Part shown: positions 4,113-53,304 of the stretch, in pieces
Numbering within the stretch: position 1 is the first letter of the stretch
Layout: each line of letters starts with the position of its first letter
Position numbers and translations under genes: made by a program
IMG/VR virus record: IMGVR_UViG_3300037518_000174
Coordinates: 1 to 53,431 of that record
Source of the DNA: a virus
Taxonomy: Duplodnaviria; Caudoviricetes
Length of the DNA stretch: 53,431 nt
Strand: one strand, 5' to 3'
The notes under the pieces: model-generated
Database searches by the model: none
Told to the model about the DNA's origin: nothing
The model's input: only the letters and a program-made list of their open reading frames with translations

Positions 4113-5086
4113 CAGGTGTACGTCTCTGCCGTGTTGAACGCCGCACCGCCGAGATCGGCCGTGGTCACACCGAGATTCCCGAAAGCGCCGACACCCGTGA
4201 CATCGAAAGCCGATATCAGGTTGGCAGCCGTAGCGGCGGAATCCGGCGTGGTAATCACGTTGTCCTTGGCAACGCCGTTATTGGCCGTGCCAGTCAAAAC
4301 TACACAACCCGGCTCGACCGCAGCGTCCTCCATGACGAAGTTGTTGCGCTCGATACGGATATTGGTAGCCGTAGTCGCCACTTCTATGAGCCCGACCGTG
4401 GCCGTTCTCGAAGTCAACTGAGCGAAGTGGTTGTCGATGATGACGACGTTCTCATGGGTTCCGGCGAACTCCAGAAGATGATCGTTCCCAACATCGTTGC
4501 CGATGTAGGTGCAACCCTCCATCCAGAGACCGTCGCAACCGTCCGCGATGTTGGCAACGATGATGTAGTTCTCGTCGGAACCATCCTCGTCGAATAAGCA
4601 GTTCTGAAGCGTCAGGTTGTGAGCCGCAGCACCAATATCCAGGGCTCCCGGCGTGATGTCCGATACACCAGCCTTAAAGTTGATGTTGTAGAACGTCACA
4701 TCAGCCGCAGTGATGTCGATATCTGAAGCCGCATCAGTCGTGAAGTGAAGTTGAGGCTGTAAAGACCCAATACCCAACCCGACTATTGCAATGCCCTGAA
4801 CGTCACAGGTAATCGCAGCAGCAGCCGTGACTTCCTCGACGTGCCCAGGCATAAGAACGATGATGTCTCCACGGGCAGCAGTGCAACGTCCTATCGCATA
4901 GTCCAGCGTAAGGAAAGGCTTCTTGTACGTTCCGGAGTTTCCATCCGACCCGCCAATACCGCCCCTCGCCAAGACACCGGAATTGTTGACGAAGAAAACT
5001 TCTCCCGGATGCGTCTGCAAGAGAGGCATCCCCCTAATCGTGATCCCATTGGCAAAGCCGTTGGGATATTCAGTAACACCAGGCAT
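4112..5086 (-). CDS. beta-helix (pectin-lyase-like) head fibre/decoration protein
   Basis: FFV...GSDGNSGTYKKPFLTLDYAI...GDIIVLMPG cap motif followed by Asn-ladder repeats (QNCLF, IIDNHF, IERNNF); directly downstream of the capsid gene. Confidence 0.75.
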   Translation of the reverse strand: MPGVTEYPNGFANGITIRGMPLLQTHPGEVFFVNNSGVLARGGIGGSDGNSGTYKKPFLTLDYAIGRCTAARGDIIVLMPGHVEEVTAAAAITCDVQGIAIVGLGIGSLQPQLHFTTDAASDIDITAADVTFYNINFKAGVSDITPGALDIGAAAHNLTLQNCLFDEDGSDENYIIVANIADGCDGLWMEGCTYIGNDVGNDHLLEFAGTHENVVIIDNHFAQLTSRTATVGLIEVATTATNIRIERNNFVMEDAAVEPGCVVLTGTANNGVAKDNVITTPDSAATAANLISAFDVTGVGAFGNLGVTTADLGGAAFNTAETYT

Positions 5087-6073: not shown

Positions 6074-6982
6074 TCATGCTCCGCCATTGTTGCTGTAGCA
6101 TCCGCGCGGATCAGTCCAACCGACCGAGAAGCGCCTGTAGCACTTGGCCTTGTTGTTGTCCGTATCGAAGTCTGAGTCAGCACTGAACTCAGCGCCAACG
6201 CGGTCATACCAGCAAAGACCACGGGGAGCGCTCGTCTTGATGAAGAACGCATCCGAGTCCGTCAGGTAATGATTCACCGCAACTTCAGGGACAGTGCCCA
6301 TCACTCGCAGCGCGTTGATCGCGTTGTTCGCGGTATCGTTCTGAAGCAACGACTTCAAGACCCTCGTTGACTCGAACGACAAAGCAGTCGGAATAATCAA
6401 CCGCTTCGGCATCAAAGAAATCTTGAGTCCACGCGGATTCAGCGCGTCCATGATCTGGATAGCCAGGCTCTCGATGGATGCTTCCGAAAGATCGGCACCC
6501 GAGCTAAGCGTATTCGACCATGTACCGTGAAAATCCGAGTGAGTCGTCACGCAGAGAATCGACCCATCACCCCCGGTATACCCGGAAGTGTGAGCACGAT
6601 TCAGCACGTTTGCTCCGACGTTTTCCTCCGTTTGACGCAACGAGTACGCAAGATCCCCGGTACGATCGAAGGCTTTGCCCTCGTAGAGATTGTCATCCCG
6701 CTCTGCGCGAGTGACTATCCACCCCATGCCGAACTCCGTATGCACGTAACGTGACACGTAACCCTGCGTATGGGAATCGTACTGAGTAGCCCCGCCTTCC
6801 GTCTTGGTCGGAACAAGGCCGAACCCTGAAGTCTGCACGTCCTCCTCGTAGTTCTGAGAAGAACTCTTGACATCGAAGATTTGCGTGTATTCCACAGAAT
6901 GCTCGGCGTACTTCTCGCCCCACCATGCTGCAACTCCCGGCCAGAGGGCCTTGGGATGATTGCCTGTACTTATTACAGCCAT
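6074..6982 (-). CDS. major capsid protein (HK97 fold, Mu gpT-like family)
   Basis: KALWPG...YTQIFD..SS...YEE....SGFG, PKRLIIP, NHYLTDSDAFFIKT, RFSVGWTDPRG; located after the scaffold gene. Confidence 0.9.
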   Translation of the reverse strand: MAVISTGNHPKALWPGVAAWWGEKYAEHSVEYTQIFDVKSSSQNYEEDVQTSGFGLVPTKTEGGATQYDSHTQGYVSRYVHTEFGMGWIVTRAERDDNLYEGKAFDRTGDLAYSLRQTEENVGANVLNRAHTSGYTGGDGSILCVTTHSDFHGTWSNTLSSGADLSEASIESLAIQIMDALNPRGLKISLMPKRLIIPTALSFESTRVLKSLLQNDTANNAINALRVMGTVPEVAVNHYLTDSDAFFIKTSAPRGLCWYDRVGAEFSADSDFDTDNNKAKCYRRFSVGWTDPRGCYSNNGGA

Positions 6983-9311: not shown

Positions 9312-9564
9312 CGATGTCTCCTACTGGCTCTAATGACTTGCTCTTGAATACGTCTTCCAAGTTCTCGTAAGCAGCCAGAAGACCGAACCTGTTCGCCCGA
9401 TCCGCCATCAAGGCTTCGGCGTTCTCGAAAACGTAGGGTTGGTCTCTCAGGCCGTCATCGGCCTGTTGCTTAAGGCTTGCTATGAGGTAGAAGAAATACT
9501 CCGTAACCTGGGACTCGAACCACTCGTCAATCCGATTCTGATCCGGCCTCGGCATCTTTTTCAT
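9265..9564 (-). CDS. hypothetical protein (typical post-portal small helical protein)
   Basis: W...VT..F pattern and position between portal and groES. Confidence 0.6.
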   Translation of the reverse strand: MKKMPRPDQNRIDEWFESQVTEYFFYLIASLKQQADDGLRDQPYVFENAEALMADRANRFGLLAAYENLEDVFKSKSLEPVGDIDESIGDSPDREPGTD

Positions 9565-11734
9565 GGATCACCTTCAATCTATCTGTCAGGGCTTCAAAGC
9601 GTTTGGTAATCGAGTCGAACTGCTCTTTGGTCGCGTCCGCATCGAGCTTTCCGGCTTTGTACTGGTTGAGGATTGTTTGTGATCGATCAACCTGAACCTT
9701 GCTCTCCGCAAGCACCGCGTTCGTTTCCTGACGAGCCTTCGATTCAATGGTCTTCCTCGCCTGATCTTCGGCCTTGAGTTGAATCTCTGGATTCGGCGGC
9801 GCGGGAATCAATGGTTGTCCCTTCTCGTCGATCGGGTAGATTTCCTGCCGGCTCGGAATGTCCATCGCCTCCAACAACAGCAACTCACCCTTCACCGTGT
9901 TGTAGTGCGGGACGGTTGACATTCTTTCCGCGACGAAATGCGCCTTGCTCAGCTTCTCCATGTTGGAGAAAGCATTCGGATCGGCAGCGGGCATCAAGTC
10001 CTTCGGGTCTCCCGAGTAATCTGACTTGCCGATCTGCATCGGGCCGTCCAGGGTTTCGAAATACTTGACCGGACTCACATACTGCCGATTCAGCATGTAG
10101 AGCTTTCTCGCTTCCTTTCTGAAGGAACGGTAGATCCGCTTGAAGATCCCGTTGAATAGCTGAAGTCCCTGCTCCAGCATCGCGTGATAGTTGTATGCCG
10201 GTGTGTTTTGTCCGGGGTTTGACCCTGACATCGCATCGTTGACGCTCGACACTCTCTCGGCATAACTGATAAGCAACGACAGAAGGTTGAACAGGACAGG
10301 TGAAGGCATATTAACCGGAAGGGGAACGAGCGAGTCTTTCAGAGTTTGCCCTGCTACGTTCACCCGCTTCCATTCGTAGGGTGTATTGAATCGGATGACT
10401 CCGCCCTCGATTCTCGCGCCCCTCCCGATAAAACCGTGATTGCCGTTGTTCAAGGTTCCGGAGTCGATTAGCTGATTGATTAAGGTATTGACCGAATCGT
10501 TCAGCGGCCCCAAAAGAGCCCCCATCCCCAGATCGTAGAAACCACCATCCGGGGACGGGATGAAACCGTACTTCGTGTAGTACTCCTCGACTTCGATATT
10601 CAGGACTTTAGGATTAACTTCGTTGTCCTGCTGTAAGGCTCTGGCCTGCTCCGTCAAGGTCTGCTGTTGAGCCTTGAGCTGCATGACCATCTGTTCGGCT
10701 TCCCGAAGGGCCTGCACGTTCTGGGGGCCTTCCTTGCCTGTCGGTGCTTGGAGTTGGGTAACAATCTGCTGGACCTGAGCGTCGATCGTCTTGATCTGCT
10801 CGACGATCTGCTCGATCTTCAAGGATTGCTCGGTCTCGACTTTCGAGAATCGGTTGACGATCCTGAGACACTTCTTCGACGACTTATCGACAACGATCAC
10901 GTAGGGCTCTGGAAGTCCGTCGTCGTCCAGATCCCAGTAGCAATGTTGTTCCAGCAATGGGCGGGGCTTCTTCTTATCCTCCGTTGGCTCTCTGACTCCC
11001 TGACGTTTGTCGGAGATTTTCTTATCGCCCCTCGGCTGAATATTCCCTAGCTCTTTATCGGAATAGACGCCTCGTAACTGTCTGGCCCTGATCTCTCTAT
11101 CGTAGAGCTCAAATTCCTCGGTCTTGCGCTCGCAGTCCTCGATGGAGTTGGCGTAGTAGGAGACAACAAGGTTTTGAGGAAGGACCAGCTTGGAAATGTT
11201 GTGTCGTTTAACAGGATCGTAAAAAGACTTCTTGAACACCGTCCCGAGTATCGGAAGGGCGATCAGAGCCTTGTCGAAGTCCTCCTCCCAGTTCTCGTCC
11301 TCCTCCAACAGCTGGTAGGACATATGGTGTGAGATTCTTTGGGCTCGCGCGGCTTTCTCGCCGTTCGGGTCTTCACCGACAACCCGGTACTTGACGACCT
11401 CGGGAGGCTTGACCAACACAGGATAGGAGCGGGCAGAGAATTGAAGTGCCCCTATGGTGACGAGCGGGAACTTGACGTTGCTCGCGTTAGGCCAAGGCAC
11501 CGACTTCTTCTCGACGATCTGGAGCGCCAACTTAATGGCGTTCTCCATCCGCTCTTCCCAATCGGATCGGGATTGCTTGTCGATCTCATAGGACTCGTAG
11601 ACAGCACGGCCGATCTCGTCGGACAGTTCTTCGCCAAGCAAAGGTTCGATGTTGTCTGACTTTTGAAGCTCCCAAATAGAAAGGCCCCTTTCCGGGGCCT
11701 CTTCTTCGGTTGTCTTCGTTGCGTAGTCTGCCAT
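9527..11734 (-). CDS. portal protein (P22-like podovirus type)
   Basis: D..SR..W, PWPNASNV..P, G..FKK..YD, YGFIPS.DGGFY..G, NQLIDSGTL.N; follows terL. Confidence 0.9.
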   Translation of the reverse strand: MADYATKTTEEEAPERGLSIWELQKSDNIEPLLGEELSDEIGRAVYESYEIDKQSRSDWEERMENAIKLALQIVEKKSVPWPNASNVKFPLVTIGALQFSARSYPVLVKPPEVVKYRVVGEDPNGEKAARAQRISHHMSYQLLEEDENWEEDFDKALIALPILGTVFKKSFYDPVKRHNISKLVLPQNLVVSYYANSIEDCERKTEEFELYDREIRARQLRGVYSDKELGNIQPRGDKKISDKRQGVREPTEDKKKPRPLLEQHCYWDLDDDGLPEPYVIVVDKSSKKCLRIVNRFSKVETEQSLKIEQIVEQIKTIDAQVQQIVTQLQAPTGKEGPQNVQALREAEQMVMQLKAQQQTLTEQARALQQDNEVNPKVLNIEVEEYYTKYGFIPSPDGGFYDLGMGALLGPLNDSVNTLINQLIDSGTLNNGNHGFIGRGARIEGGVIRFNTPYEWKRVNVAGQTLKDSLVPLPVNMPSPVLFNLLSLLISYAERVSSVNDAMSGSNPGQNTPAYNYHAMLEQGLQLFNGIFKRIYRSFRKEARKLYMLNRQYVSPVKYFETLDGPMQIGKSDYSGDPKDLMPAADPNAFSNMEKLSKAHFVAERMSTVPHYNTVKGELLLLEAMDIPSRQEIYPIDEKGQPLIPAPPNPEIQLKAEDQARKTIESKARQETNAVLAESKVQVDRSQTILNQYKAGKLDADATKEQFDSITKRFEALTDRLKVIHEKDAEAGSESD

Positions 11735-13254
11735 TAGTATCCTGTGGTCATGTTCCTACCCAAATCCATGTGCTTCTCGAAAGCCTCCTGATACTCCCAC
11801 TCCTCCGCTTCCTCGGATGTGGGAGGTTCGATCATCTCGTCTACAATCAGCCCCAACCAGGCAAAGGCGTCGAACTGATCCTTGTAGGCGTACTTCGGAA
11901 ACTTCGTGATTTCTTCCTCAAAGTCCGGGTACCAATCGGCGTCCTTGTCGAACCTAACCCTTCTCGCTCGGGTTCTTGCCTGCATTCCCCGGGCACGTTT
12001 GTCCTTGTCCTTCGTGGGCGGAGCGTCGTCGATGTTGATGAACGGATTCCCGTTCTTGCCCATCTCGTTGTAGAGAACGGGTCCAATAGACTTAGCGATG
12101 TTCTCCGACTCCACTCGGAAGAAAGAGGGCTCATACGCCTTCTGGACCGCGAAGAACTCCTCGAGAATTTCAAGCGCGTCCCACCGGCCCTTTCGCACGT
12201 CAACGATGTGGAGGATTCCGTCGGAATCGACACCGCCTATCACAAAGGCGGTGTAAGCACTTCTATCCGTTTCGCCGATCGCAAGGTCTACTCCGACGTA
12301 GTACTCCTTCGTTCGACTTCGATCTTCGTCCGTCATTGGAACCAGATCGGAGACTCGGAAGTAACCCGTCGTCTCGTCAATCGGGTTGTTCAAATACTCC
12401 TGGCCGTAGATATCCAATATTCCACGGTCAGCGAAGTCCCTTCGCTCCTGTAGCCACCACTCCAATGTGTGAAGCTCGGGCCAAAGAAACTCCGTCATAT
12501 CGTGATCGTGAGCCCTGTATTTGACGGACATCCACGGATGAATGCCTGTCGAATACACCCTCAACGGTTCGATAACAGTGTCTTTCAACTTCTCGTTCGG
12601 CATCGTGCCTTCGAGGAAAGAGCCAAAACCAATGATCGTTCCTACTGCACGGATTCTGCCGTTGTTCCTGACGATCGGCTTGATGGCGCCGTACATATTC
12701 TTCAGGAACTTGTCCCTCCGGGCTTCGTTGAGCACCATTTCCTCGTCTTCGCAATCATCCATCAGGATCTCGTCGGGACGTTTTCGCTCCCACTTCAATC
12801 CCCGGATCTTCTGATCTGTTCCCCTCCCGATGACTCTCGACTTCGAGCCGTCCTTGAACTCGAAGATCAACTCAGTCTCAGTCTCCTTCTTGAACTTGTG
12901 GAACTCCATGTACTGGCGGAGTCTTTCGTTCTCCGCCAGCTCCACCTTGATCTCGTTGATGAACTGAGCCGCGTTGGTCTCGTTCGAGCTTAGAATCAGA
13001 AGATGTCTACAGGATCGAAAGCAGACCCGAAACAGCACATACGCGAACGTGATAGCCGTCGATTTCGCGTGACCCCTGGGGGCGGCGGCGGAACACTGCC
13101 TGTGCTCGGACAGAAACAGCGCCCACAATTCTCTATGGAAAGCCGGAGTCGGACGCGGCTCGTCGTATCGATCCAGTAGAAATTCGTTGGTGAAACCTTC
13201 TAGCGCCTCTGCAAACTCCCAATCCTGTTGTGTTAGGTTGGGTATGCGCTCCAT
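11734..13254 (-). CDS. terL: terminase large subunit
   Basis: Walker A APRGHAKST, Walker B RPDEILMDDCE, QEYLNNP, RNase H-like GVDLA, and FP...KDQFDA. Confidence 0.95.
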   Translation of the reverse strand: MERIPNLTQQDWEFAEALEGFTNEFLLDRYDEPRPTPAFHRELWALFLSEHRQCSAAAPRGHAKSTAITFAYVLFRVCFRSCRHLLILSSNETNAAQFINEIKVELAENERLRQYMEFHKFKKETETELIFEFKDGSKSRVIGRGTDQKIRGLKWERKRPDEILMDDCEDEEMVLNEARRDKFLKNMYGAIKPIVRNNGRIRAVGTIIGFGSFLEGTMPNEKLKDTVIEPLRVYSTGIHPWMSVKYRAHDHDMTEFLWPELHTLEWWLQERRDFADRGILDIYGQEYLNNPIDETTGYFRVSDLVPMTDEDRSRTKEYYVGVDLAIGETDRSAYTAFVIGGVDSDGILHIVDVRKGRWDALEILEEFFAVQKAYEPSFFRVESENIAKSIGPVLYNEMGKNGNPFINIDDAPPTKDKDKRARGMQARTRARRVRFDKDADWYPDFEEEITKFPKYAYKDQFDAFAWLGLIVDEMIEPPTSEEAEEWEYQEAFEKHMDLGRNMTTGY

Positions 13255-15373: not shown

Positions 15374-16141
15374 CTAACTCCCTGTTCTTGGTAAGTTTTG
15401 CTCAAACTCATCAAGCCATTCAATTAAAGAGATAACAATTGGCCTTACCTTGCGAGCTTCATCTGTGGTCAGCTCCGCTGCAACAACGGGTGACTTCCTG
15501 TGCAGAATATTATTCACAGACTTTAAGGTCGGGCCTGACGAATCACTAATCAGCCACACATAAGCGTCTGACGATCTCCTTTTCGTTGCAAGCGCAGCTA
15601 ATTGTCGCTTTGAAACCCCTCGATCGACGAGCTTATCGAATTTCTTTTTCTCGATTCTAGCGAACCTCACCGCATGAGCCGCATCATTCGCCGTTAACCC
15701 GGTCTGCCTCAATCTGCCACTGACTCCAAGAGGCTTACCCTTGCCTTTAGAGTCATCTATCACGCCAGATGCCGAGCCACCACGATGCGCATTGGCATAA
15801 TGCGTGTTGCACACTCCCCTAGAATAAACAGCATTAAGACACCCAGAAATCTTGCAAGCCTCAATCGATTTCTTTTTCGTAGGCCAAAGTAGCTCCGCTA
15901 ACTCAGCCATCTTGCGCAGAGAAACCTGATCAAGTTTATTGGCCTTGCGAAGATGCTCTTTATCCTTGTGAATCTTCGACCAGAATGCGTATCTATCAGC
16001 GTAGTCCTTCCAATATCTCGCGTCGTCAAGAGTAATGCAGGCATCCAAATACTTAATCGCTCGCTCGTATTCGACTATCTCGAACGGCTTGCGTCCGCCA
16101 GTAATCTGTCGTGCCTGCTGTTCAGTAATGACTGCTTTCAT
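15374..16141 (-). CDS. basic putative DNA-binding protein with a CxxxxC..CxxHY Zn finger
   Basis: CKISGCLNAVYSRGVCNTHY motif; basic composition; more AT-rich than flanks. Confidence 0.55.
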   Translation of the reverse strand: MKAVITEQQARQITGGRKPFEIVEYERAIKYLDACITLDDARYWKDYADRYAFWSKIHKDKEHLRKANKLDQVSLRKMAELAELLWPTKKKSIEACKISGCLNAVYSRGVCNTHYANAHRGGSASGVIDDSKGKGKPLGVSGRLRQTGLTANDAAHAVRFARIEKKKFDKLVDRGVSKRQLAALATKRRSSDAYVWLISDSSGPTLKSVNNILHRKSPVVAAELTTDEARKVRPIVISLIEWLDEFEQNLPRTGS

Positions 16142-16145
16142 CTCT

Positions 16146-16436
16146 CTACAAATCCTCGGTGCTGACTTGGTTGGTGCTCAAAAACTCGTCTTCGGGCTCA
16201 GGGCTCAACTGCGCTGTGTGCCGCTCGCCCCGTGCCCTGAGTAGATCCTGGGGGTGCCGGGATTCGATGAACTCAGGCAATACCCAGAGTCCGTCCCATT
16301 GCTCTACCAGCTCGCCCCGCTTGGCCCTGAAGCCTGACCTATCGCAGATGTCGTATGTGCTCGGATGCTCTTGGGCATCGGGGTTGGTCTCGGAGTAGTC
16401 CGAGAATGTGCCTGCGGGCTTCTCAGAGTCGCTCAC
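16146..16436 (-). CDS. small virion-associated protein, paralog of 43098..43463 (probable GTG start at 16436)
   Basis: SDSEKPAGTFSDYSETN...ICDRSGFR...GLWVLPEF..SRHPQ; GTG overlaps the upstream TGA. Confidence 0.75.
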   Translation of the reverse strand: MSDSEKPAGTFSDYSETNPDAQEHPSTYDICDRSGFRAKRGELVEQWDGLWVLPEFIESRHPQDLLRARGERHTAQLSPEPEDEFLSTNQVSTEDL

Positions 16437-16780
16437 GCGCAATCGCTGTCACAGACGGAAATGATATGACCCGACTCCACACCTAGGATTTTCTCGGCAT
16501 CGGCCGGTATCCAGTGTGAGCCCGTGGTCGCATTCGTCCCGCCAGGGCTGATGTTGTAGAAGGTCTTTCCGTCACAGATGATCCCTATGAACCGCGTGGT
16601 CTGCGCAAAAGGGGCAGAATCAACAGCGGTCGAGAAATCATCAAGATGCTGCTCTGGCCTGTCACCGTCATCGTGTGCGGCCGGAATATTGACGTTCGCA
16701 ACATCGGTGTACTCGATAATGTGGCAGTCGGTCGCCCATGCACTGACAGGAAATAGGAAAATCAGTAGAAATCGCTTCAT
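16433..16780 (-). CDS. signal-peptide-bearing paralog of 51660..51959 (putative spike-base protein)
   Basis: Sec-type signal MKRFLLIFLFPVSAWA; the mature part aligns with 51660 (S.PF...T, ATT...W.PAD, V..GH.ISV). Confidence 0.8.
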   Translation of the reverse strand: MKRFLLIFLFPVSAWATDCHIIEYTDVANVNIPAAHDDGDRPEQHLDDFSTAVDSAPFAQTTRFIGIICDGKTFYNISPGGTNATTGSHWIPADAEKILGVESGHIISVCDSDCA

Positions 16781-20960: not shown

Positions 20961-20991
20961 AAAAGAGAGAGGCCCGAACTAGCAGGCCTCT
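20961..20991 (-). terminator. tR'-like intrinsic terminator in the late leader
   Basis: Minus strand AGAGGCCTG-CTAGTT-CGGGCCTCT followed by CTCTTTT, just before the RBS of 20951. Confidence 0.65.
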
Positions 20992-31887: not shown

Positions 31888-32184
31888 ATGACACCGGCCG
31901 AGGAAAGATTCGTCCAATGGGCGAAGCGCAAGGGCTGGTACGTGATGAAGCCGGGCTGGCCGGACTTTCTGTGTCTCGACCGCAAAGACAATCTGTTCTC
32001 GGTCGAAGTCAAGATGAATTACAAGCCGCCATCGCAACGACAAGCCAGGTGCTTCGACTGGCTCGAACGATTCTCCACACTTCCAATCCACGTATGGGAT
32101 CGGGAATCGCCAAACCATATGTGGAAGTGGTATCTCGCGAGGGCTATCTATGAGAAACGCGGGATCGACTTCGACAGCGGGTAG
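31888..32184 (+). CDS. VRR-NUC-like PD-(D/E)XK nuclease
   Basis: E..F...GW...GWPDFL...SVEVK...S.RQ. Confidence 0.7.
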   Translation: MTPAEERFVQWAKRKGWYVMKPGWPDFLCLDRKDNLFSVEVKMNYKPPSQRQARCFDWLERFSTLPIHVWDRESPNHMWKWYLARAIYEKRGIDFDSG

Positions 32185-33259
32185 CCCGTATCTGACAGTC
32201 GCGCAAGCCCGCGCTGAGCTTGGCGTCTCGGCCTATATCTTCAAGGAGAACTTCCGCCCGCAACTGACGGAATTTCCTAGGGGCAAACGCACCGTCCTGT
32301 TCGACCGTCTTGAGGTCGAAAGGCTCAAGGGCGAATCTGACCCCATGTGGAATAAGAAAAAGGTCAGTGACGCCTTAGATCACGCATGGCGGGCAAAATG
32401 GTCTCAAGCCAAGGGCGCTCGAAAGAAAGGCCAGCTTAAGAACATTGTTGAGCGCGAGATAGGAGGCATCAGTCTCCCAATGTCATACGAGCAAGTCGAG
32501 CAGTGGGTTTTCGAGCTGCAAGATAAGGATCTCGCTGCTGCCACGATCAAAAGCCGCCTCTCGATGTTGCGATTCGCCCTTGACCTATCCTGCAAGCGCG
32601 GCTGGATCAAGTCGGTTCCGCCGATGCCTACCATTGAGCCTTCTCATCGGAAGCTGCGGTGGATGAAAGATTCCGAAGTGAAGCGACTCCTAATTGCTTG
32701 CGATAATCAACGCTACCAAGTAGCGGACATCATGCGGGATGTCATTACCTTTTTCCTCGACACCGGAGCGCGAGTCAGCGAGCTATTGAAGGTCCGTGAA
32801 GACTCTCTCACAGTGCGAGGACGGAAAACGTATGTCGAGTTTCTAGACCGAAAGGCTGGAGACAACCTAAAGATTCCATTAACGAACGCGGCCGAGGAAG
32901 CGATATACCGGCTCATTGCGAGCGAATACTGGAAGTCCAGAATTCGCGGTACGCGTGAAAGTGCTAAGCGTCTCGAGAGTGCTCAGAATTGGGTCACGCA
33001 TCGATTCACAGAGATTCGCAACGACGCCAAGTTGCCGGATGTCACAGCCCATACGCTTAGACACACCTTCGCTTCAAGGCTTGTTCAACGAGGCGTCAGC
33101 ATCTACAAAGTGGGTAAACTGCTAGGGCACTCAGACATTCGTATGACGGAGCGCTATAGCCACCTTGCGCCATCATCGCTCGATGACGCGATCCAGGTTC
33201 TTGAGCCGACTCCGCCAGATCAGGTTGCCAATATGGACGATTACAGGACGAAGGAATGA
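32150..33259 (+). CDS. int: tyrosine integrase with N-terminal excisionase-like segment
   Basis: Catalytic R (DTGARVSEL), K (DRKAG), HxxR (HTLRHTFAS), H (LLGHS) and Y (TERYSH); AAATI core-binding motif; close to a tRNA-derived attP. Confidence 0.95.
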   Translation: MRNAGSTSTAGSPYLTVAQARAELGVSAYIFKENFRPQLTEFPRGKRTVLFDRLEVERLKGESDPMWNKKKVSDALDHAWRAKWSQAKGARKKGQLKNIVEREIGGISLPMSYEQVEQWVFELQDKDLAAATIKSRLSMLRFALDLSCKRGWIKSVPPMPTIEPSHRKLRWMKDSEVKRLLIACDNQRYQVADIMRDVITFFLDTGARVSELLKVREDSLTVRGRKTYVEFLDRKAGDNLKIPLTNAAEEAIYRLIASEYWKSRIRGTRESAKRLESAQNWVTHRFTEIRNDAKLPDVTAHTLRHTFASRLVQRGVSIYKVGKLLGHSDIRMTERYSHLAPSSLDDAIQVLEPTPPDQVANMDDYRTKE

Positions 33260-40836: not shown

Positions 40837-41172
40837 TCAGACAATTCCGGGATCTTTCGGCGTCTTCCAGAGGCGAGCAATCGCCCACATCACGACAGTC
40901 GTGAGTCCCGCGGCGAACTCCGGCGACGAAGCCAGTTCCGCCGTGAACGAAAACGCCTGCAAGATTTGCAGAATGATGTTGATCGCGATACCGGCCAGTC
41001 CGGCGCCTGTCGAAGTTCTCAGCATGTCAGTCTCCTCGTTGATCTCAAGTAATGGTTTCCCCTTCCGGGCTCGCCGCTTGTTCAGCTTTCGTTTGATGCG
41101 GGTAATGGGTTTAGCAGCCCGCCAGATGCGCTCGCCCGTCTTGATGACGCTTACGGCGTCGGCTATTGTCAT
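40837..41172 (-). CDS. putative holin (two TM segments)
   Basis: Two hydrophobic helices; directly downstream of the endolysin. Confidence 0.55.
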   Translation of the reverse strand: MTIADAVSVIKTGERIWRAAKPITRIKRKLNKRRARKGKPLLEINEETDMLRTSTGAGLAGIAINIILQILQAFSFTAELASSPEFAAGLTTVVMWAIARLWKTPKDPGIV

Positions 41173-41588
41173 GGCTCGACAATCCTGACCGCCTCGGCCC
41201 GGTTATTCCGGCAGTCCACATGAATCCAGTTCCCGTCACGCGTCGCCTCGATGTTCTCGATCGTGGTGATCCCGTCGTACAGTCCGTCCCGGATCGCCTC
41301 GTAGACCGTCTCTAAGGGCGTATCCAGGGGCGTGAGGTCAATTGCCCGCCCGTATCGGTGTTGGCTGAAAGCGGCGCCTACGGGGCAGCCCTGCGGCCTG
41401 AAGCCCCTATACTTGAGGTCGCCCCCGGTGTGCCAGTTGTTGACTAGAATCCGGCCGTAATCGTCGCGGATCGAGTCGATAGACCGGAGAATTTCCGGGT
41501 CGAAAAGCTCTAGCGAGGCTTGGCCGCGAATGTCCCAGACTTCGGGCGGGACTAATTCTCGAATGTCAAACCAACGTGGCGTATACAT
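41169..41588 (-). CDS. endolysin, peptidase M15 (Zn, Hedgehog/DD-peptidase fold)
   Basis: RGFR...GA..SQHRYGRAIDL...WIHVD.R. Confidence 0.9.
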   Translation of the reverse strand: MYTPRWFDIRELVPPEVWDIRGQASLELFDPEILRSIDSIRDDYGRILVNNWHTGGDLKYRGFRPQGCPVGAAFSQHRYGRAIDLTPLDTPLETVYEAIRDGLYDGITTIENIEATRDGNWIHVDCRNNRAEAVRIVEP

Positions 41589-41597
41589 TTATTCGCC

Positions 41598-43097
41598 TCA
41601 CAGCTCATACTCAAAATTGATAAACAGACGGTCGCCATCGGCCCATGTGAACGGGGTCGTTTTAGTCACTGAATTAGCCGTTGTCGGAATAGCCAGACGG
41701 ACCGTTGTCGCTGATGCAGAACCCTCTACAGCGCATTGGTAGAAGTTTCCTGTTGCGTCGATTAGCTGTGCATTTCCTACTTGCTTGCCGAGAGCAGAAG
41801 TCATGGCTTTTGGTAAGCTGAAGTTCCACTGCCCACCAGTGCCGAATGTCGTGCTCGATCCTATTTGCAGATGAATCTGCACCGACATCTTTCTACCGCG
41901 TTGGGTGTAGAAGGATTGCAGGGTTCCATCGCCGATGACATTGGTTCCGCCGCTGGCATCGGTCCATGCCACCGAGTAAGAGGCTCTGCCATCGTAAATG
42001 TCGTTTACGTCAGTCGTGTTGTCGGTGATCGTGACGCCGTTGTTTCGAAGATGCCCAAATCCGTGGAACTCGCAGTCGATAAGCCCGTCCGTAAGCGTCA
42101 GCTCTGCCCCGGAGGTCAGCGTATTTCCCGGCCCCCACACGATGCCGGAGAAGGCTGTCGTGCCGTCGCCAATCGTGACATCGGCAGCCGATGCGAGCGC
42201 ATTTCCGTCGATGTGCAACTGCTGTTTTTCGAGAGTGGTCAAGCCTCCAACGCGATTACCGTGAACATAGTTCCCGGCATTACCACCCACCATCTTGAGC
42301 TTGCCGAACTGATTGCCGAAGATAGCGTGCCCGCCAGCAGAGCCGGTCTGATTGAAATAGAATCCTCCCGTGGCCTGCGCAGTTGTAATACCTATAATCC
42401 GACTGTATAAGCCCTCTCCCTCGACTACGATGTCCCATCCGTCCGCCGACGTGTCGAGCGTTTCGTACCTTGAATTGGTGCTGATAATTCTGAGGCCGTT
42501 ACCGTCCGAATCATAAACAGGGCGGCCTTCGACATTCCGCGATGAGCAATGATCGAGCACCAGACTCGGGACGGTCTTGACGATGTTGTCGCCGGTAAAT
42601 GTCGTTCCGTCTCCGTCGAAACGTCCGTTAAAAACAGCATTCTGCTGCCCGCTGAAAGTGATTAAAGGACCATTGGCGTTCTTCTTGATGACCGCATTGC
42701 CGAAGAAATGAAACGTCTGAGTCGTATTGTCGGCAGTCAGGTTGTTCGCCAGGTATAGCCCGTCAGGGAACAGAACGGGTTTAGCTGTATCTATCGCTGA
42801 CTGAATAGCGGCAGATACATCCAACAGTCCTGCCCGTGTCACGACATCCGTAACTTGAGCGGTAGTCATAAACCTGAACACACTGGCAGCGAGAGTAACG
42901 TCGCTTAGATGCTGAAAACTGATCGGCGTGACTTCGGCATCGTCCTCTGCTTGGGTTTGTTCAGTCCCAAGTAGTTGCGCGATAGTCGCCTTCTGGGTCG
43001 GAATCGCACCACCCTTCCACAAGGCAACCGTGTTGGTCCCGTGACTGACGGAACTCGCCGCCGTCAGATCGTTGATGGTTTTGTTCAGATCAACCAT
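41598..43097 (-). CDS. tailspike / receptor-binding protein (beta-helix depolymerase-like)
   Basis: D.SAAIQSAID...VLFPDGLY cap, GN-rich beta-helix, and C-terminal domain Y...W...IG.GTL...Y.Q.GR...W.FSLP. Confidence 0.8.
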   Translation of the reverse strand: MVDLNKTINDLTAASSVSHGTNTVALWKGGAIPTQKATIAQLLGTEQTQAEDDAEVTPISFQHLSDVTLAASVFRFMTTAQVTDVVTRAGLLDVSAAIQSAIDTAKPVLFPDGLYLANNLTADNTTQTFHFFGNAVIKKNANGPLITFSGQQNAVFNGRFDGDGTTFTGDNIVKTVPSLVLDHCSSRNVEGRPVYDSDGNGLRIISTNSRYETLDTSADGWDIVVEGEGLYSRIIGITTAQATGGFYFNQTGSAGGHAIFGNQFGKLKMVGGNAGNYVHGNRVGGLTTLEKQQLHIDGNALASAADVTIGDGTTAFSGIVWGPGNTLTSGAELTLTDGLIDCEFHGFGHLRNNGVTITDNTTDVNDIYDGRASYSVAWTDASGGTNVIGDGTLQSFYTQRGRKMSVQIHLQIGSSTTFGTGGQWNFSLPKAMTSALGKQVGNAQLIDATGNFYQCAVEGSASATTVRLAIPTTANSVTKTTPFTWADGDRLFINFEYEL

Positions 43098-43463
43098 TTA
43101 CAAATCTTCCGCCCTGACCTCACGCACTGAGCCGGTCAAGATGTTGCCTCCCGTTCCTGTCGAGATGTAGAAGCCGTCACCCGTAATCAGGATGTTTCCT
43201 GTTCCAATGAATACGTCTGGCCCTTCCGGCCGTCTCGCCATACCGCCACGCTCCTTCGCCGGAGAAGGTCTTTCCTGTGGGTGTCTTGAATCTCTAAACT
43301 TGGGTAGAACCTTGAGTCCGTACCTGTCCGTCACGAGATCGCGAGGATCTACCCGGAAACCTGACCGCTGGCAGATTTCGTCTCGTCGGGTATTGGTGAA
43401 GGTGTTGGAGTTTGTTTCGGAGTAGTCTGAGAAGGTGCCGGAGGGCTTTTCGGAATCACTCAT
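43098..43463 (-). CDS. small virion-associated protein, paralog of 16146..16436
   Basis: MSDSEKPSGTFSDYSETN...ICQRSGFR...GLKVLPKF.DSRHPQ; extra ILITGDG..I.T..GGNILT tail. Confidence 0.75.
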   Translation of the reverse strand: MSDSEKPSGTFSDYSETNSNTFTNTRRDEICQRSGFRVDPRDLVTDRYGLKVLPKFRDSRHPQERPSPAKERGGMARRPEGPDVFIGTGNILITGDGFYISTGTGGNILTGSVREVRAEDL

Positions 43464-46315
43464 TCGACCGCTTCTTCGACCATCTCTCTGATTGCGTCTC
43501 TAGCGGGACGATAGGTATTCGCAACGGGAATAGCGTTAGCAAGTTCCAGTGAAAGTTTGCTGCTGTTCCCTTCGAGCGCCATCGCTACGCCTTCTCTAAG
43601 TTCCTCAATCTGGGATATCTGCGGACCCAACGCCTGTTGCAGTCCGCTCGATCCAAACCGATGCGCGAACAGCACATCAGCAGCAATCTGGCCGGCACCT
43701 GTAAATCCTGCCCGGTCAATCGCGCGAGTTAGTTTCTCGGCCTCGGTCTCGTTCGCCCTGTTCGGGTTTCCGTCTGGACCGTATTTGATAACTTCCCTCA
43801 GCTCGTTCGCCCAATACGCCGTCACCGTCATCAATACTCCGGTTGCGCTGATCTTCGGGACGTAGTGAACCGGGTCTTCCACAATCTTCTTAAACCACCG
43901 CTTCATCACGGTATTTCCGAATGTGGTCTGGAAGCCTCGAAGTTGCGAGATCAAATGAAAGTGTGGATTCGCGTGCCACATCGGTCTGACCGTAGCCCTC
44001 GGGTTCATCACAACTTCATTCGTGAACCTCAGGGCAGCAGCATCCAGCACGCGCTTGAAATCGCCCTCGTCCTTAGCGCCCGACTGAACCCACCGAATCC
44101 CCTCATCGGCCGATACACCCAACTCGGCAAGCTCCTGACGCAATCGGTTCCCGGTTCTTCCGCCCTTGCCTTTCGCCAGATCCTTGAGATGGTCCACCAC
44201 CATCAATCGCCCGGAATGGAATCCCCACACTCGGTTCATCCGGGTCCACTGGTGAAGTAATGTGGCTTTGAAGAAAGCGTTGGTCGCCCTGGTGACTTCT
44301 CCGCCGAACGAAGCCATGAGCCTTTCCGTCACCGCGATATCGAGACCGATCCCGACGCGCTCCAACGCTTTAGTCGCTTCACTTTGCGGGAACCGCTTGA
44401 ACACAGTCCCGATAGCGCCATGAATCGCATGATCGATCATCTTGGGAACGGCCTTCAAAGCCGACTTCCAGCGTCCGCGAGAAAGGATAACAAGTGGCTC
44501 CGACAGGCTCGAAATTGTCGCCAGAGACAGCGTTCTCAATAACTGATAAGCACCAAACCCCTTGTTGATCCCACGCATGACACTCGACTGAATCGGCTTG
44601 TAGGACAACTGCAACGCATCAGCCAATTCGTAGACTCGCTGAATCTCCTTGGGCCGAATCGGCCGGCCAGATAAATGACCTTCTTCGATCGCCGATCTCA
44701 CCAGTTGATTCAGTTTTTCCTCGCCGGCTCCGAACTCCCGCGCATACTCCGATCTTCGGGTAATGCCTGAGACATACTTTCTCAGCACGTCATAGGCATT
44801 GCCTTCCAGAAACGGAGCCAGTTCTTCCTCAGGTATATCCGTTAACTTCCGCGACATCTCGGCGTTTCTGTTTCGTTTGACACCGCCCTGCAACACACGG
44901 CCAGGCATATAAACACCAGCATCGTCAACCGCTCGATCCGTGATTGTTCTTGATGCCAGCAATATGCCGTCGTTGTTGACGATACGACGTTGAACCTCAG
45001 TCGCGTCCTCGATCGGCATGTGCTTGGATAGCGTCTTTACAAACTCGTCAGAACCCGCAGCATCGTTATAGACTCTGGGAAAGTAGTTCTCGACGTATCC
45101 AGTCTCGAGCCCAGCGTCTTTCGCGTACTGCTGAATATCGTCCAGCATCCCGCGAATTACCTTTCCAGCTTCCGCAACCTTTCCCGACCCTTCCGTAATA
45201 CCCCTCAAGTGCTTGACCAGATCGTCATTCTCTGTCTTCGTCAATCCGCGTCTAAACGTCTTGGTGAAGGTGCCCATCGCGTCTTGCAACTGACTGAGGT
45301 ACTGGCCGTTCGCAAGGCTCAGCCGTTCATAGAAACTGGGGGCTATCGGTGTATCGGAGAACTCCTGGTACTCCATGATGTTCCGAATGGTTTTCATCGA
45401 CGGTGAAACTTTGGAAGCATCGTCGAGATAGGTGACAGCCTTGTAGCCAATCACGTCTCCGATCTCGCGCGAGAAACGCTTGGGAGTCTCCAGAATCGAC
45501 TGTATCGCTTCCTCCAGCGTAGAACTGGGACTGACGGTCTCAGCCGCACCTACTGAAGTTATCGGTCTAGGACGTGTGACGCGCGCCCTCACGGGAGGCA
45601 AGGTTGCACCACCGAATATCCCACCGATCGGCGCGGATATCATCGCTGTCATCGCGGCATCGTTGTATACCTTGCCCCAATCAACACTCCCTTCGTTTGC
45701 GGCCTGATCGGCTACAGAAATAGGAATGGCAACGGCAGCACCAGTACCGGCAGCACCCAACGATCCCCCGGCAACTCGGGCCATGACTTGAGCCGTTCGC
45801 CCCATGCTGGCGACTCTCTCGCCCAACTGGACTGCAAGTTTCTTCGATCCGAAGGGAACAGCCAGCAATTCCGGGTCTGCCGCTATTGCGTTGACGAACT
45901 CAGCAGCAACGGCCCCAGCATCGTCCTGAACAGCAGAGACAAGATCCCCCAGGTTGAACTCGGAAACCTCGCTCTGTTCTTCCTGATTCGACAACCTATC
46001 GAACCTTTCAGAAAGCTTCTGGTACCTTTCGCTACTCGTGTCTCCCGCCTGCTCGTGCTCCCACATCAGGTTGGATACCTGAACTCTTTGAGACTCAGCG
46101 TGCTCATCGATAGTCGGCCGTGACTCGTCTTTGAATGCGGATACCGCGTTATCTAGCGCGCTGTTTCGCCTTCTCGCTCCACCCATGAAAGCGTCCCATG
46201 ACGGGAACGGAAGCTTCAGGTTGTTCCAGAAACCACGAGTCGCCTGGTGTTTTGGCTCTTGGAGTCTACTGATAGGAACTGGGCCAGATTGAATCTGACT
46301 GATCGGGATCGGCAT
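43460..46315 (-). CDS. large internal virion/DNA ejection protein
   Basis: 951 aa, largely helical, with ENYFPRVY motif; follows gp7/gp20-like genes as in P22-like podoviruses. Confidence 0.7.
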   Translation of the reverse strand: MPIPISQIQSGPVPISRLQEPKHQATRGFWNNLKLPFPSWDAFMGGARRRNSALDNAVSAFKDESRPTIDEHAESQRVQVSNLMWEHEQAGDTSSERYQKLSERFDRLSNQEEQSEVSEFNLGDLVSAVQDDAGAVAAEFVNAIAADPELLAVPFGSKKLAVQLGERVASMGRTAQVMARVAGGSLGAAGTGAAVAIPISVADQAANEGSVDWGKVYNDAAMTAMISAPIGGIFGGATLPPVRARVTRPRPITSVGAAETVSPSSTLEEAIQSILETPKRFSREIGDVIGYKAVTYLDDASKVSPSMKTIRNIMEYQEFSDTPIAPSFYERLSLANGQYLSQLQDAMGTFTKTFRRGLTKTENDDLVKHLRGITEGSGKVAEAGKVIRGMLDDIQQYAKDAGLETGYVENYFPRVYNDAAGSDEFVKTLSKHMPIEDATEVQRRIVNNDGILLASRTITDRAVDDAGVYMPGRVLQGGVKRNRNAEMSRKLTDIPEEELAPFLEGNAYDVLRKYVSGITRRSEYAREFGAGEEKLNQLVRSAIEEGHLSGRPIRPKEIQRVYELADALQLSYKPIQSSVMRGINKGFGAYQLLRTLSLATISSLSEPLVILSRGRWKSALKAVPKMIDHAIHGAIGTVFKRFPQSEATKALERVGIGLDIAVTERLMASFGGEVTRATNAFFKATLLHQWTRMNRVWGFHSGRLMVVDHLKDLAKGKGGRTGNRLRQELAELGVSADEGIRWVQSGAKDEGDFKRVLDAAALRFTNEVVMNPRATVRPMWHANPHFHLISQLRGFQTTFGNTVMKRWFKKIVEDPVHYVPKISATGVLMTVTAYWANELREVIKYGPDGNPNRANETEAEKLTRAIDRAGFTGAGQIAADVLFAHRFGSSGLQQALGPQISQIEELREGVAMALEGNSSKLSLELANAIPVANTYRPARDAIREMVEEAVE

Positions 46316-47322: not shown

Positions 47323-47324
47323 TA

Positions 47325-51657: not shown

Positions 51658-51659
51658 AA

Positions 51660-51959
51660 CTATGCACTCACCACTACGCTAATCACATGACCCGCACGCA
51701 CCAGAAAGTACTCCCAATTGTCAGCGGGCACCCACGGATCGCTCGTAGTAGCCGTTGGGTTCACACCGAATGAATAATGAAACTGGCTGTCTGATTGAAT
51801 GCGGACACACTTGGTGTCCAAACTGAAAGGGATGCTTTTCGTCTCAGTCGAATAGCTAACCGTCTGTACGTTAAGACTCGGCTGTTTTGCGATAAGGATG
51901 ACCTGCCCCGACTTATAGGTGCCGGGGTAAGAAAATTCCTCTACAACAAGCGTTGCCAT
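51660..51959 (-). CDS. small virion beta protein (putative spike base); cytoplasmic paralog of 16433..16780
   Basis: Located in the structural operon; aligns with the mature part of 16433; no signal peptide. Confidence 0.75.
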   Translation of the reverse strand: MATLVVEEFSYPGTYKSGQVILIAKQPSLNVQTVSYSTETKSIPFSLDTKCVRIQSDSQFHYSFGVNPTATTSDPWVPADNWEYFLVRAGHVISVVVSA

Positions 51960-53015
51960 CTACATCCCCATTCCCATTCGAGACATAACCATTCGATGCT
52001 TTTTCCTGAAAAACCCTTGGCCTTGGTTTGGTTCACCCAAACTCGGAAACGATACTTGACTATCCGCCTCTACGTTTTCTGCTGACAGTACGTGCACCTG
52101 ACCTACTGACGGATACGTAACCTCAGACGCCGACTCGATATCCTCAGCCGATAGCTCGTCCGTACCGCTGCTCTCGCTTAGGGCCGGAGCCGTTAACTCG
52201 GAATCGCTCTCTACATCGTCCGCTAGAAGTCCATGCTCTTGGCCTAGAGCCGGAGTCGATACTTCCGACACAGATTCAGTATCAGCAGCCAGAATCACAT
52301 GGACCTGGCCTAACGAGGGTGAAGTTATCTCGCTTAACGACTCAACATCCTCGGCGAGAAGGATGTTGCTTTCGCTCGCCGTAGGAGCCGATACTTCGGT
52401 ATCGCTCTCTACGTCATCCGCGAGTAGCGCGTGGGTCTGACCTAAGGCCGGAGCGGAGACTTCAGACGCACTCTCAACGTCGCTCGCAAGTAATGCGTGC
52501 TCTTGTCCTATGGCTGGAGAAGTGACCTCAGAAGATGACTCGACATCTTCAGCCAATAGGTCATCTGTAGGAACACCTGGCGTATAAGTAACACGTACCG
52601 TGAAGGCCGACCAAGAACACGTCTCGGCATCGTCCTTCATATTCGCGGAATAGTTCGCGGAATACGCGATCTCATCCCAATCGGCAGATACTGCCGTGCC
52701 AGGCGCCGGGGAAGGCGAGGAGCCATCGGCTATCGTGTCGCTACCGACACTAGCGCCTAGAGATGCAGAGCAGGCCGCTGCTGCATCGCTGCCGAAATCA
52801 CCCCAAACGGCGGTACCGCCCGTGGTTTGAATCCGCCAGCGTATGCCTATCGTGTCGTCTGTCGCGCCGTCCGAGTTGAGTGACGGCGTTCCAACAACAG
52901 ATACGTCATCAATCGTCGCGCCGTCGAAATCTCCGGGCGGTGTGATTCCGTTGCTTGCAGACCCAGCGGCACCTACTCCACTACCAGCCGGAGCTGTGAT
53001 ATCCCAGGTAGCCAC
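51960..53015 (-). CDS. acidic fibre-like virion protein with eight ~22-aa repeats and C-terminal MGMGM tail
   Basis: N-terminal globular domain, then L(L/S)AxDVESxSEVxxPx(L/I)GQxH repeats and a basic/hydrophobic tail. Confidence 0.75.
   Translation of the reverse strand: MATWDITAPAGSGVGAAGSASNGITPPGDFDGATIDDVSVVGTPSLNSDGATDDTIGIRWRIQTTGGTAVWGDFGSDAAAACSASLGASVGSDTIADGSSPSPAPGTAVSADWDEIAYSANYSANMKDDAETCSWSAFTVRVTYTPGVPTDDLLAEDVESSSEVTSPAIGQEHALLASDVESASEVSAPALGQTHALLADDVESDTEVSAPTASESNILLAEDVESLSEITSPSLGQVHVILAADTESVSEVSTPALGQEHGLLADDVESDSELTAPALSESSGTDELSAEDIESASEVTYPSVGQVHVLSAENVEADSQVSFPSLGEPNQGQGFFRKKHRMVMSRMGMGM
52030..52562 (-). repeat. eight degenerate ~66-bp (22-aa) tandem coding repeats
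   Basis: e.g. ALLASDVESASEVSAPALGQTH / ALLADDVESDTEVSAPTASESN / ILLAEDVESLSEITSPSLGQVH. Confidence 0.9.
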
Positions 53016-53290
53016 TAGCAGTTAATCCCGCATTCCTTACAAACACCGCGATTCGGCCCTTCTCCGTCAGGCCAGTCTCTACAGTTGAGCCCACTGACCC
53101 ATGCAGTCTTTGTGGCTTCCTTGTATCTGGGATCGGCTATAACGGCATCCCAATTACCAAGCTCAGCCCTTAATGCGCAGGCCCACTTGCGGAAGTAGCC
53201 GGTCTCGTCGGTATAGTCTCGTATTAAGAACGGACACTCTTTGCCGTTGACGTAACAGCAATGATCGCTTCCGTTGCCGGTGCATGGCAT
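53015..53290 (-). CDS. Cys-cluster protein, YkgJ-like
   Basis: C......CC...CPFL...C...CRDWP...CKEC pattern resembles the YkgJ CxxCxxCC family. Confidence 0.5.
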   Translation of the reverse strand: MPCTGNGSDHCCYVNGKECPFLIRDYTDETGYFRKWACALRAELGNWDAVIADPRYKEATKTAWVSGLNCRDWPDGEGPNRGVCKECGINC

Positions 53291-53304
53291 ATCATGTAGT
53301 CGTG

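Follow-up and report, generated by a model that had tools for sequence, protein, structure and literature searches.

A signal-bearing paralog of a small all-beta phage protein and its upstream partner gene in a temperate P22-like podophage

The 53,431-bp sequence analysed here over its whole length (the window; IMG/VR record IMGVR_UViG_3300037518_000174) represents a complete virus with direct terminal repeats and encodes on its minus strand, at 16433..16780, a protein of 115 residues with a predicted signal peptide. With a probability of about 0.6, we take this protein to be a Sec-exported, disulfide-stabilised version of a small all-beta phage protein and the partner of the 676-residue protein (P0004) encoded just upstream. 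The phage carries a cytoplasmic pair (351 and 99 residues) and an exported pair (676 and 115 residues) of like design, the 351-residue protein being the cytoplasmic counterpart of the partner gene. A cassette of fibre- or depolymerase-like proteins, likewise signal-bearing, ends with the signal-bearing two-gene unit, which is best described as an exported edition of a fibre-partner module not described before.

According to the mechanism that we propose, both proteins of the pair would be exported late in infection, C19-C69 and C110-C114 of the small protein would form disulfides in the periplasm, and the small protein would bind or cap the C-terminal tail of its partner. It would act as a stoichiometric partner of the protein encoded before it, and export of that protein would bring with it export and disulfide stabilisation of the small one.

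The 115-residue protein, its paralog and their family

Both open reading frames (ORFs) on which the initial annotation was built, 16433-16780 (115 residues) and 51660-51959 (99 residues) on the minus strand, are present, their translations contain the sequence strings quoted there, and their paralogy is real. BLASTP aligns residues 48-112 with 35-98 at 24/65 identical positions (37%; E 1e-10 for the single comparison), and all-against-all BLAST of the phage's own ORFs returned the pair at E 3e-8. Only one further paralog pair was found among these ORFs at E<=1e-3, namely 16146-16442 and 43098-43463, encoding 98 and 121 residues (47% identity over 91 residues, E 2e-25). The alignment had been called end to end, which holds at profile level (HMM positions 5-122 in the 115-residue and 22-118 in the 99-residue protein), while BLAST omits the first ~45 and ~34 residues, respectively. 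The phage holds exactly these two family copies. A third candidate at 997-1749 (genome search E 0.003, BLASTP E 8e-5) was rejected and treated as a shared short motif; the family hidden Markov model (HMM) aligns 20 residues of it at 7 bits, and the 115-residue protein gave no match. The label of virion protein for the 99-residue copy has synteny as its sole basis.

An exhaustive HMMER search with a four-row profile recovered 1137 proteins of about 100 residues at E<=1e-3 and 79 at E<=1e-10. Both window proteins belong to this large all-beta phage family, which is so far unnamed. A 150-row alignment was composed of both window proteins, P0001, P0003 and P0006-P0151 (best matches). The HMM of these rows scores the 115-residue protein at E 1e-32 and the 99-residue protein at E 4e-37, values that are partly circular because both proteins are rows of the model; independent support for membership comes from the BLASTP match between the pair (E 1e-10) and from the 1137 library matches. 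Neither window protein matches Pfam or PHROGs; of the 150 family members, none is matched by PHROGs and at most four, weakly, by Pfam. PF23891 (DUF7243) matches neither window protein at E<=0.01 and four of the 150 members weakly (best E 0.0014), and its ESM Atlas structure row has a template modelling (TM) score of 0.66 by query and 0.36 by target, so that DUF7243 is at most a distant lead. Further sequence scans were negative within their scope: tblastn of the 115-residue protein against phages gave no match, viral-contig scans with the 99-residue protein and two further family alignments gave no confirmed relative, two family patterns run against one genome each of 185,579 species gave 0 confirmed relatives for those patterns only, and a metagenome scan with one further family alignment gave 0 matches.

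The AlphaFold2 model of the 115-residue protein from the 150-row input (mean predicted local distance difference test (pLDDT) 92.2, predicted TM score 0.80) has nine strands and no secondary structure in residues 1-16; an earlier prediction from 4 rows (pLDDT 58.4) was not used. Foldseek against BFVD yielded 9 matches at E<=1e-3 (TM by query 0.50-0.74), each of them an uncharacterised phage protein of 91-109 residues, and ESM Atlas structure rows reached TM 0.77-0.89. The ESM Atlas neighbours are unnamed clusters in which 75-100% of members with a taxon record are viral; for the nearest clusters of 115-120 residues the viral share is 77-100%. Against the PDB, Foldseek gave 0 matches at E<=0.001 (best E 0.16), and the best hit of a profile search of PDB sequences was cytochrome bo3 subunit 2 at E 0.67. 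The relation to Rcc01079, the head-spike base of the Rhodobacter capsulatus gene transfer agent (RcGTA), that had been proposed is without support because these fold and sequence searches found nothing: no RcGTA entry stands among the 50 PDB Foldseek rows shown or among the profile matches to E 10.

The N-terminus is of canonical Sec type, as noted initially. Judged by eye and by a hydropathy rule, the N-terminus MKR / FLLIFLFPVS / AWA, followed by TDC, has the classical n/h/c layout of signal peptidase I substrates, with a predicted cut after A-W-A at residue 16 (signal peptide codons 1-16, 16733-16780; mature residues 17-115). It combines a positive n-region, a hydrophobic h-region and small residues at -3 and -1 with a mature part homologous to signal-less proteins. 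The lipobox [LVI][ASTVI][GAS]C is absent: A-T-D precedes C19, homologs have G-A-T, A-A-T or A-A-D, and -1 is never G, A or S. Family-wide, a signal-like N-terminus was defined by a mean Kyte-Doolittle value of >=2.2 for the best 10-residue stretch among residues 1-30, together with charge; 58 of the 150 rows have one and 92 do not. The signal segment lies wholly ahead of conserved strand 1, so that signal-bearing rows read ...A-x-A-x-C-x-I-x-E-Y and signal-less rows M-A-x-L-Y-I-x-E-Y. The hydrophobic N-terminus is not part of the folded domain in homologs, in that signal-less homologs begin at strand 1 and residues 1-16 are unstructured in the AlphaFold2 model.

The reported difference in cysteines is also correct. 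The 115-residue protein has C19 (codon 16724-16726), C69 (16574-16576), C110 (16451-16453) and C114 (16439-16441; all minus strand), and its paralog has a single cysteine, at none of these positions. Among the 58 signal-bearing rows, 46 have two mature cysteines, nine have four, and one each has one, three and five, i.e. the count is even in 55, odd in three and zero in none. The 92 signal-less rows have zero (26), one (43), two (20), three (1) or four (2) cysteines (22 even, 44 odd, 26 zero), and the two with four are N-terminally truncated signal-type sequences. Signal and at least two cysteines are associated (Fisher 4e-21). C19 and C69 co-occur in 52 rows, with C19 only in four, C69 only in 18 and neither in 76 (Fisher 8.5e-20); C110 and C114 are found in the same 10 rows and never one alone, and seven signal-bearing rows without C19 carry C69 and C73. 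Beyond the family, the mature parts of P0004 and P0005, the first protein of the cassette, have 10 and 14 cysteines, and the 951-, 499- and 351-residue and portal proteins of the phage have 0, 3, 2 and 3, respectively. A crude parity screen over 15 sources counted 36 even, 13 odd and 9 zero for signal-flagged ORFs vs 174, 155 and 71 for unflagged ones (Fisher 0.008). At family level, the signal/even-cysteine pattern over 150 members thus supports well the idea of adaptation to an oxidising compartment.

One member from a stretch shared identically by two loci (L108/L109; hit L109:4737-5078) is signal-less and starts MATAIISEY, and it shares the ending FYDGSS with the signal-bearing subgroup. 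A 48-residue frame ending RIGLNIIFLLLG lies before it, and this form may have lost, or never had, a signal.

The two-gene unit and its cassette

P0004 (16784..18814, minus strand) has a signal-like N-terminus (MIRRLK, a hydrophobic run and GQA) and the C-terminus ...GGFINLGI, and its stop codon lies 3 nt ahead of the ATG of the 115-residue gene. A longer ORF call of 796 residues (to 19174) runs into the preceding gene, and its start is probably not the true one. For the cytoplasmic pair, the stop codon of the 351-residue repeat-rich protein (51960..53015, minus strand; ending ...SRMGMGM) abuts the start of the 99-residue gene (51660..51959, minus strand) with a gap of 0 nt. The 351-residue protein consists mostly of ~23-residue repeats of the type AEDVES-SEV--P-LGQ-H-LLA before its C-terminus RMVMSRMGMGM.

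The loci were compared in a uniform table of 25 family hits from 24 sources; 22 of these hits have an upstream ORF on the same strand. This ORF ends in x-G-[LMIP] in 17/22 rows (14/18 after merging identical rows), with the endings GPRIGL, LRIGM, PRLGM, GVSIGL/M/P, GVTIGM, LRMRGL and MRLPGI, and with GFINLGI and SRMGMGM in the exported and cytoplasmic pair of the window. Among all 1390 stop-to-stop frames of >=60 residues in these sources, the ending was seen in 21, of which 17 are these partners; the other frames contribute 4 of about 1368. The family gene follows with a gap of -4 (ATGA overlap) in nine rows; in the window the gaps are 0 and 3 nt. Most complete partners have a signal-like N-terminus and many are 640-730 residues long, some are short signal-bearing ORFs of 68-112 residues, and five partners are truncated at a contig edge. 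Their final ~180 residues are homologous across loci, and one partner matches He_PIG (1.7e-10) and, weakly, PASTA. Upstream genes of signal-less pelagiphage-type members end otherwise (...VTFVIRR).

A complex prediction for residues 17-115 of the 115-residue protein and 577-676 of P0004, run without controls, scored 0.00 and gives no verdict either way. P0004 was also compared with the 332-residue adaptor and the 351-residue protein, and BLASTP found no similarity (best E 1.8 and 0.73); neither P0004 nor P0005 has a useful relative among PDB sequences. Separately, a conserved gene of ~210-250 residues ending ...GPSxWRH follows the signal-bearing family gene at L103:4362-5006, L105:3252-3908, L097:1174-1806 and L109:4945-5709, and two of these genes have weak glycosyltransferase family 2 (GT2) matches below the Pfam cut-off.

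The minus-strand order in the window is a terminator-like hairpin, P0005, P0004, the 115-residue gene, the 98-residue gene, an HNH-like gene, small ORFs and the terminase gene. P0005 (18972..20951, minus strand; 659 residues, 14 cysteines) is the first gene of the cassette and has a signal-like N-terminus; its residues 186-301 are weakly fibronectin type III-like. The hairpin (20968..20991, minus strand; 9-bp stem with 6 GC pairs and a T-rich tail, a consensus match only) lies 17 nt before P0005. It may mark the late transcript start, and a late-operon terminator that is passed by antitermination would be expected at this position. Consensus scans showed, besides this hairpin, no promoter-like site at the start and no strong terminator at the end of the cassette, and a GC content of 0.556-0.571 vs 0.506-0.578 for the genome, so the cassette is not foreign by this measure. 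The 98-residue gene (16146..16442, minus strand) encodes no signal peptide and overlaps the end of the 115-residue gene, and an alternative GTG at 16436 would give it a GTGA overlap. Its 121-residue paralog (43098..43463, minus strand) lies in the tail module between the genes of the 951-residue virion protein and the 499-residue protein. HNH-type genes stand directly downstream of a signal-bearing cassette in two unrelated loci, the window (15374-16141; weak PHROG matches, 3.5e-4 and 1.5e-3) and L105 (2788-3267; PF13392 at 1.4e-9), and may help to move the cassette.

The domain shared by the 98- and 121-residue proteins has no Pfam, PHROG or PDB match, and for the 121-residue protein a search of 5.8 billion proteins gave a single distant homolog, with no match in phages or the PDB. 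In the two closest relatives of the window terminase, this domain forms the C-terminal ~80 residues of 449- and 359-residue proteins encoded upstream of the terminase gene (L113:6750-8099, L114:368-1447). Another 16 terminase relatives have it as a small ORF or as the N-terminal part of a longer one, located 7-11 kb downstream from the start of the terminase.

The phage, which stems from a metagenome, is a temperate P22-like podophage because it encodes a terminase large subunit (11734-13254), portal (9527-11734), capsid-like protein (6074-6982), P22 gp10-like head-closure protein of 495 residues (Hc3 / P22 gp10-like; 49172-50659), ejection protein (47325-48635), endolysin (41169-41588) and tyrosine integrase (32150-33259; PF00589, 2e-24). 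The 951-residue virion protein is encoded at 43460-46315. Megablast of positions 41000-53431 against the phage collection gave no match, i.e. no close relative. The 99-residue gene belongs to the head-to-tail part of the virion module, with the 351-residue repeat protein on one side and the 332- and 495-residue connector genes on the other.

A similar setting recurs for the signal-less form elsewhere. Among the viral loci searched, 79 of 80 gave one family ORF each, 78 of them signal-less, and in ~50 of the 79 (counted from the table) the family gene is followed by genes of ~105-113 and 198-225 residues. Many of these loci have portal (~715 residues), scaffold (~330), capsid (~314) and 113-132-residue genes before the family gene and a ~488-residue gene after it, and the 99-residue gene of the window likewise stands ahead of the 332- and 495-residue connector genes. 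In Pelagibacter phage HTVC106P the family gene is gp60, two genes past the 'head protein', and in Synechococcus phage MinM2 it follows a protein with a tail-fibre domain.

Signal-bearing members occur in cassettes of their own. In the 57-kb record G001 (locus L041), several signal-flagged ORFs and a family member separate the two halves of the terminase gene. The terminase large subunit of this record is seemingly split into an ATPase ORF (4146-4973) and a nuclease ORF (10493-11236) by this 5.5-kb signal-bearing cassette. A nuclease half, 60-63% identical to that of L041, also directly follows the family gene at L099:1150-1896 and L100:2136-2516. The 39-kb record G002, which has terminal repeats, encodes seven consecutive signal-flagged ORFs, including a Pect-lyase_RHGA_epim beta-helix protein (PF12708, 3e-17), a LamG protein (PF13385, 4e-12) and the family member. 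They are followed by a signal-less homolog of PF23148, 'GP4 fiber-tail adaptor gp77' (5.8e-14), then by a ParB-methylase gene, with the terminase across the repeat. None of the 10 virion-module ORFs scanned in G002 has a primary spike or fibre annotation, and for one 734-residue protein of DNA-transfer type, 'lytic tail fiber' is a secondary match (4e-9). The gp77-like protein showed no similarity to the 98-residue protein of the window. An acetyltransferase gene (L091:9914-10351; phrog_1249, 1.2e-19) lies within the connector/ejection-protein block of G002.

At L087 (= L095) and L099 (= L100), terminase genes come within about 1 kb after the unit, and in five phages a terminase gene lies within about 3 kb after the cassette. 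The cassette is accessory and not bound to one phage backbone, since none of 61 loci around terminases 33-56% identical to that of the window holds a family member.

Weighing the readings of the exported pair

Several points weigh against the pairing and export proposed here. All signal calls come from our own rule on hydropathy and charge, not from a signal-peptide predictor. The 150-row tree (90 columns) is poorly resolved, with 12 of 147 inner branches starred, and supported branches provide only 4 independent signal/cysteine contrasts (sign test p 0.25), so that the association of signal and cysteines may largely mirror shared ancestry. The C-terminal motif is absent from 5 of the 22 upstream ORFs, including that of L041, the one fetched locus whose family member has the window-type C-terminal CDxDC. 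The 20 metagenome loci stem mostly from one search seeded with one subgroup (49-62% identity to the seed) and are thus not independent samples of the subfamily. Finally, BLAST with four reference terminases found no recognisable terminase in the flanks of L103, L105, L106 and L111, where GT2-like and HNH genes follow instead.

The end use of the exported pair is the least certain part of our reading. We tentatively suggest a periplasm-matured accessory set of fibres or spikes that would meet the particles when lysis mixes the compartments. A virion role is favoured by the depolymerase-, lectin- and Ig-like domain content, by the late-operon position, and by the signal-less adaptor-type genes that close cassettes (the gp77-like gene in G002, the tail-module paralog in the window). 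Tailspikes can be added to P22 particles in vitro, which makes attachment after lysis conceivable.

The signal peptides agree equally well with a function at the envelope, such as masking of the receptor or clearing of matrix. The exported pair would then never be on the virion and would serve a late accessory function, masking or destroying a receptor or glycan (superinfection, re-adsorption) or loosening capsule or matrix for release, which we regard as possible, below even odds like the virion role and only slightly less probable than it. Sec signals lead away from the cytoplasm, the site where tailed phages are built; pectate-lyase-like beta-helix, LamG, PASTA-like and Ig domains are found in the cassettes; the absence of the cassette from the 61 related-terminase loci marks it as accessory; the window and L105 have HNH genes beside it; and the phage is temperate, as its integrase (PF00589, 2e-24) shows. 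However, the only beta-helix proteins of G002 lie in the signal-bearing cassette beside the signal-less fibre-tail adaptor homolog, with no primary spike or fibre among the 10 scanned virion ORFs, and the last gene of the window cassette is likewise signal-less and a paralog of one in the tail module. A promoter-like site at the start, a strong terminator at the end and a GC shift, features frequent in morons, were also not seen in it by the consensus and composition scans.

A far-reaching form of the virion role is less probable and should be regarded as speculative. It holds that P22-like and other tailed phages include a class whose fibres or spikes for host recognition pass through Sec, that these would acquire disulfides in the periplasm and arm otherwise complete particles only at lysis, and that the ~100-residue family would be their docking or capping subunit in cytoplasmic and periplasmic editions, both present in this phage. 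That the small protein is merely an assembly chaperone following its client appears improbable.

Taken literally, the initial annotation implies a duplication of the virion gene in this phage, after which one copy acquired the signal peptide and three extra cysteines within this lineage. We consider such a course unlikely. It would agree with the presence of exactly these two family copies in the phage, with the virion-module paralog that the adjacent 98-residue gene also has, and with an approximately unbiased (AU) test on 34 of the 150 rows under a simpler model. In this test, a clade of the two window copies with P0001 and P0003 was not rejected (p 0.596), the constrained tree being 9 log-likelihood units above the quick free search. 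Yet the signal-bearing form is a widespread subfamily with its own recurring neighbourhood. The 115-residue protein is closer to the signal-bearing P0003 (52% identity) and P0012 (41%) than to its own paralog (29% over the whole alignment). On the 150-row tree, its nearest neighbours are all signal-bearing and those of the 99-residue copy all signal-less; on the 34-row tree, four of five nearest neighbours of the 99-residue copy are signal-less. The signal label changes 18 times on the 150-row tree vs 45 for shuffled labels, and 0 of 500 shuffles got down to 18; at least 4 changes are required by supported branches. Signal-bearing forms with the C19/C69 pair and a like neighbourhood are found with different terminases, G001 and G002 carry the signal-bearing form only, and no family member occurs around the 61 related terminases. 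By sequence alone, more than one order of events would fit.

It is highly improbable that the hydrophobic segment at the N-terminus stays uncleaved and anchors the protein in the membrane, or that the ORF is not expressed as called: residues 1-10 do have a mean pLDDT of 75 in the AlphaFold2 model, which is not very low, but the positive n-region, the ~10-residue h-region and small residues at -3/-1 (AWA, AFA, AFG, ALA) are kept over 58 divergent rows, always 2-3 residues before the conserved cysteine and strand 1 and without a lipobox, coupled neighbours enclose the ORF tightly, and a 50%-identical homolog has a like layout.

Relation to known systems and significance

Relatives in named phages include HTVC106P gp60 (QGZ18103.1) and MinM2 MM2_13 (WEV89200.1), both annotated as 'hypothetical protein', which belong to the same family (tblastn with P0067 and P0012, E 1e-8 to 2e-4; HMM E 8e-25 and 1e-23). 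Their genes are positioned like the 99-residue copy of the window, after the capsid gene and before connector genes. These relatives of ~90-105 residues have no signal peptide and 0-2 cysteines, whereas the 115-residue copy adds a signal and two cysteine pairs and lies in another neighbourhood.

The head spike of RcGTA consists of the base Rcc01079 and the fibre Rcc01080, which dock through a Gly/hydrophobic peptide. It is alike in idea, pairing a small base protein with a fibre; the motif described here is located at the C-terminus of the partner. Lambda Tfa and T4 gp38 are tail-fibre assembly chaperones encoded directly after fibre genes. They resemble the present family in that a small, tightly coupled gene lies immediately downstream and co-varies with the C-terminal end of the fibre, but the family is an all-beta sandwich of ~100 residues with an exported version as well. 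Neither the window proteins nor the 150 members match a chaperone family of Pfam or PHROGs, and only gene position fits Tfa/gp38.

According to the excerpts of PMC13730344 considered here, the podophages GP4, VP1 and A1002 have chain-like fibres whose small subunits are docked by sheet augmentation on a 'rope' protein, and the first ~30 residues of A1002 gp41 are missing from the map and may, according to its authors, be cleaved off. As in the present unit, the genes of small subunits rich in beta structure neighbour that of a larger docking protein, and the G002 cassette closes with a PF23148 gp77 homolog, a further likeness to the GP4 type. In contrast, those fibre subunits have 140-171 residues, and the same excerpts describe no signal peptide for them; docking by the present family is inferred. 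The family showed no sequence or fold similarity to any PDB chain, and no homology to the GP4, VP1 and A1002 fibres was found. The mosaic adhesive trimer (MAT) fibres of Bdellovibrio bacteriovorus are phage-fibre-like, exported, displayed and glycan-binding, as stated in excerpts of PMC10769870; they are bacterial, not phage-encoded, and their description in these excerpts includes no small partner of the present family. A full-text literature search and the passages of PMC3556154, excluding supplementary files, yielded no account of structural or fibre proteins of phages having paralogs with a Sec signal.

With more than 1000 members in phage structural modules, the family has neither a name nor a Pfam or PHROG model nor a solved relative. 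Its two editions, one cytoplasmic and one Sec-exported with paired cysteines, represent a natural experiment in compartment adaptation, and the exported one occurs together with fibre- and depolymerase-like proteins that are exported as well. If the exported proteins end on virions, the wholly cytoplasmic assembly of tailed phages would need an exception, and pipelines that drop signal-bearing proteins as non-structural would miss receptor-binding proteins. If they act on the envelope, the cassettes would represent a new kind of late accessory function in receptor masking or matrix clearing. Under either reading, the x-G-[LMIP] C-terminus and the small protein paired with it provide a simple, testable module. 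The recurring pairing with a signal-bearing, fibre-like partner hints that some phages fold host-binding parts outside the cytoplasm.

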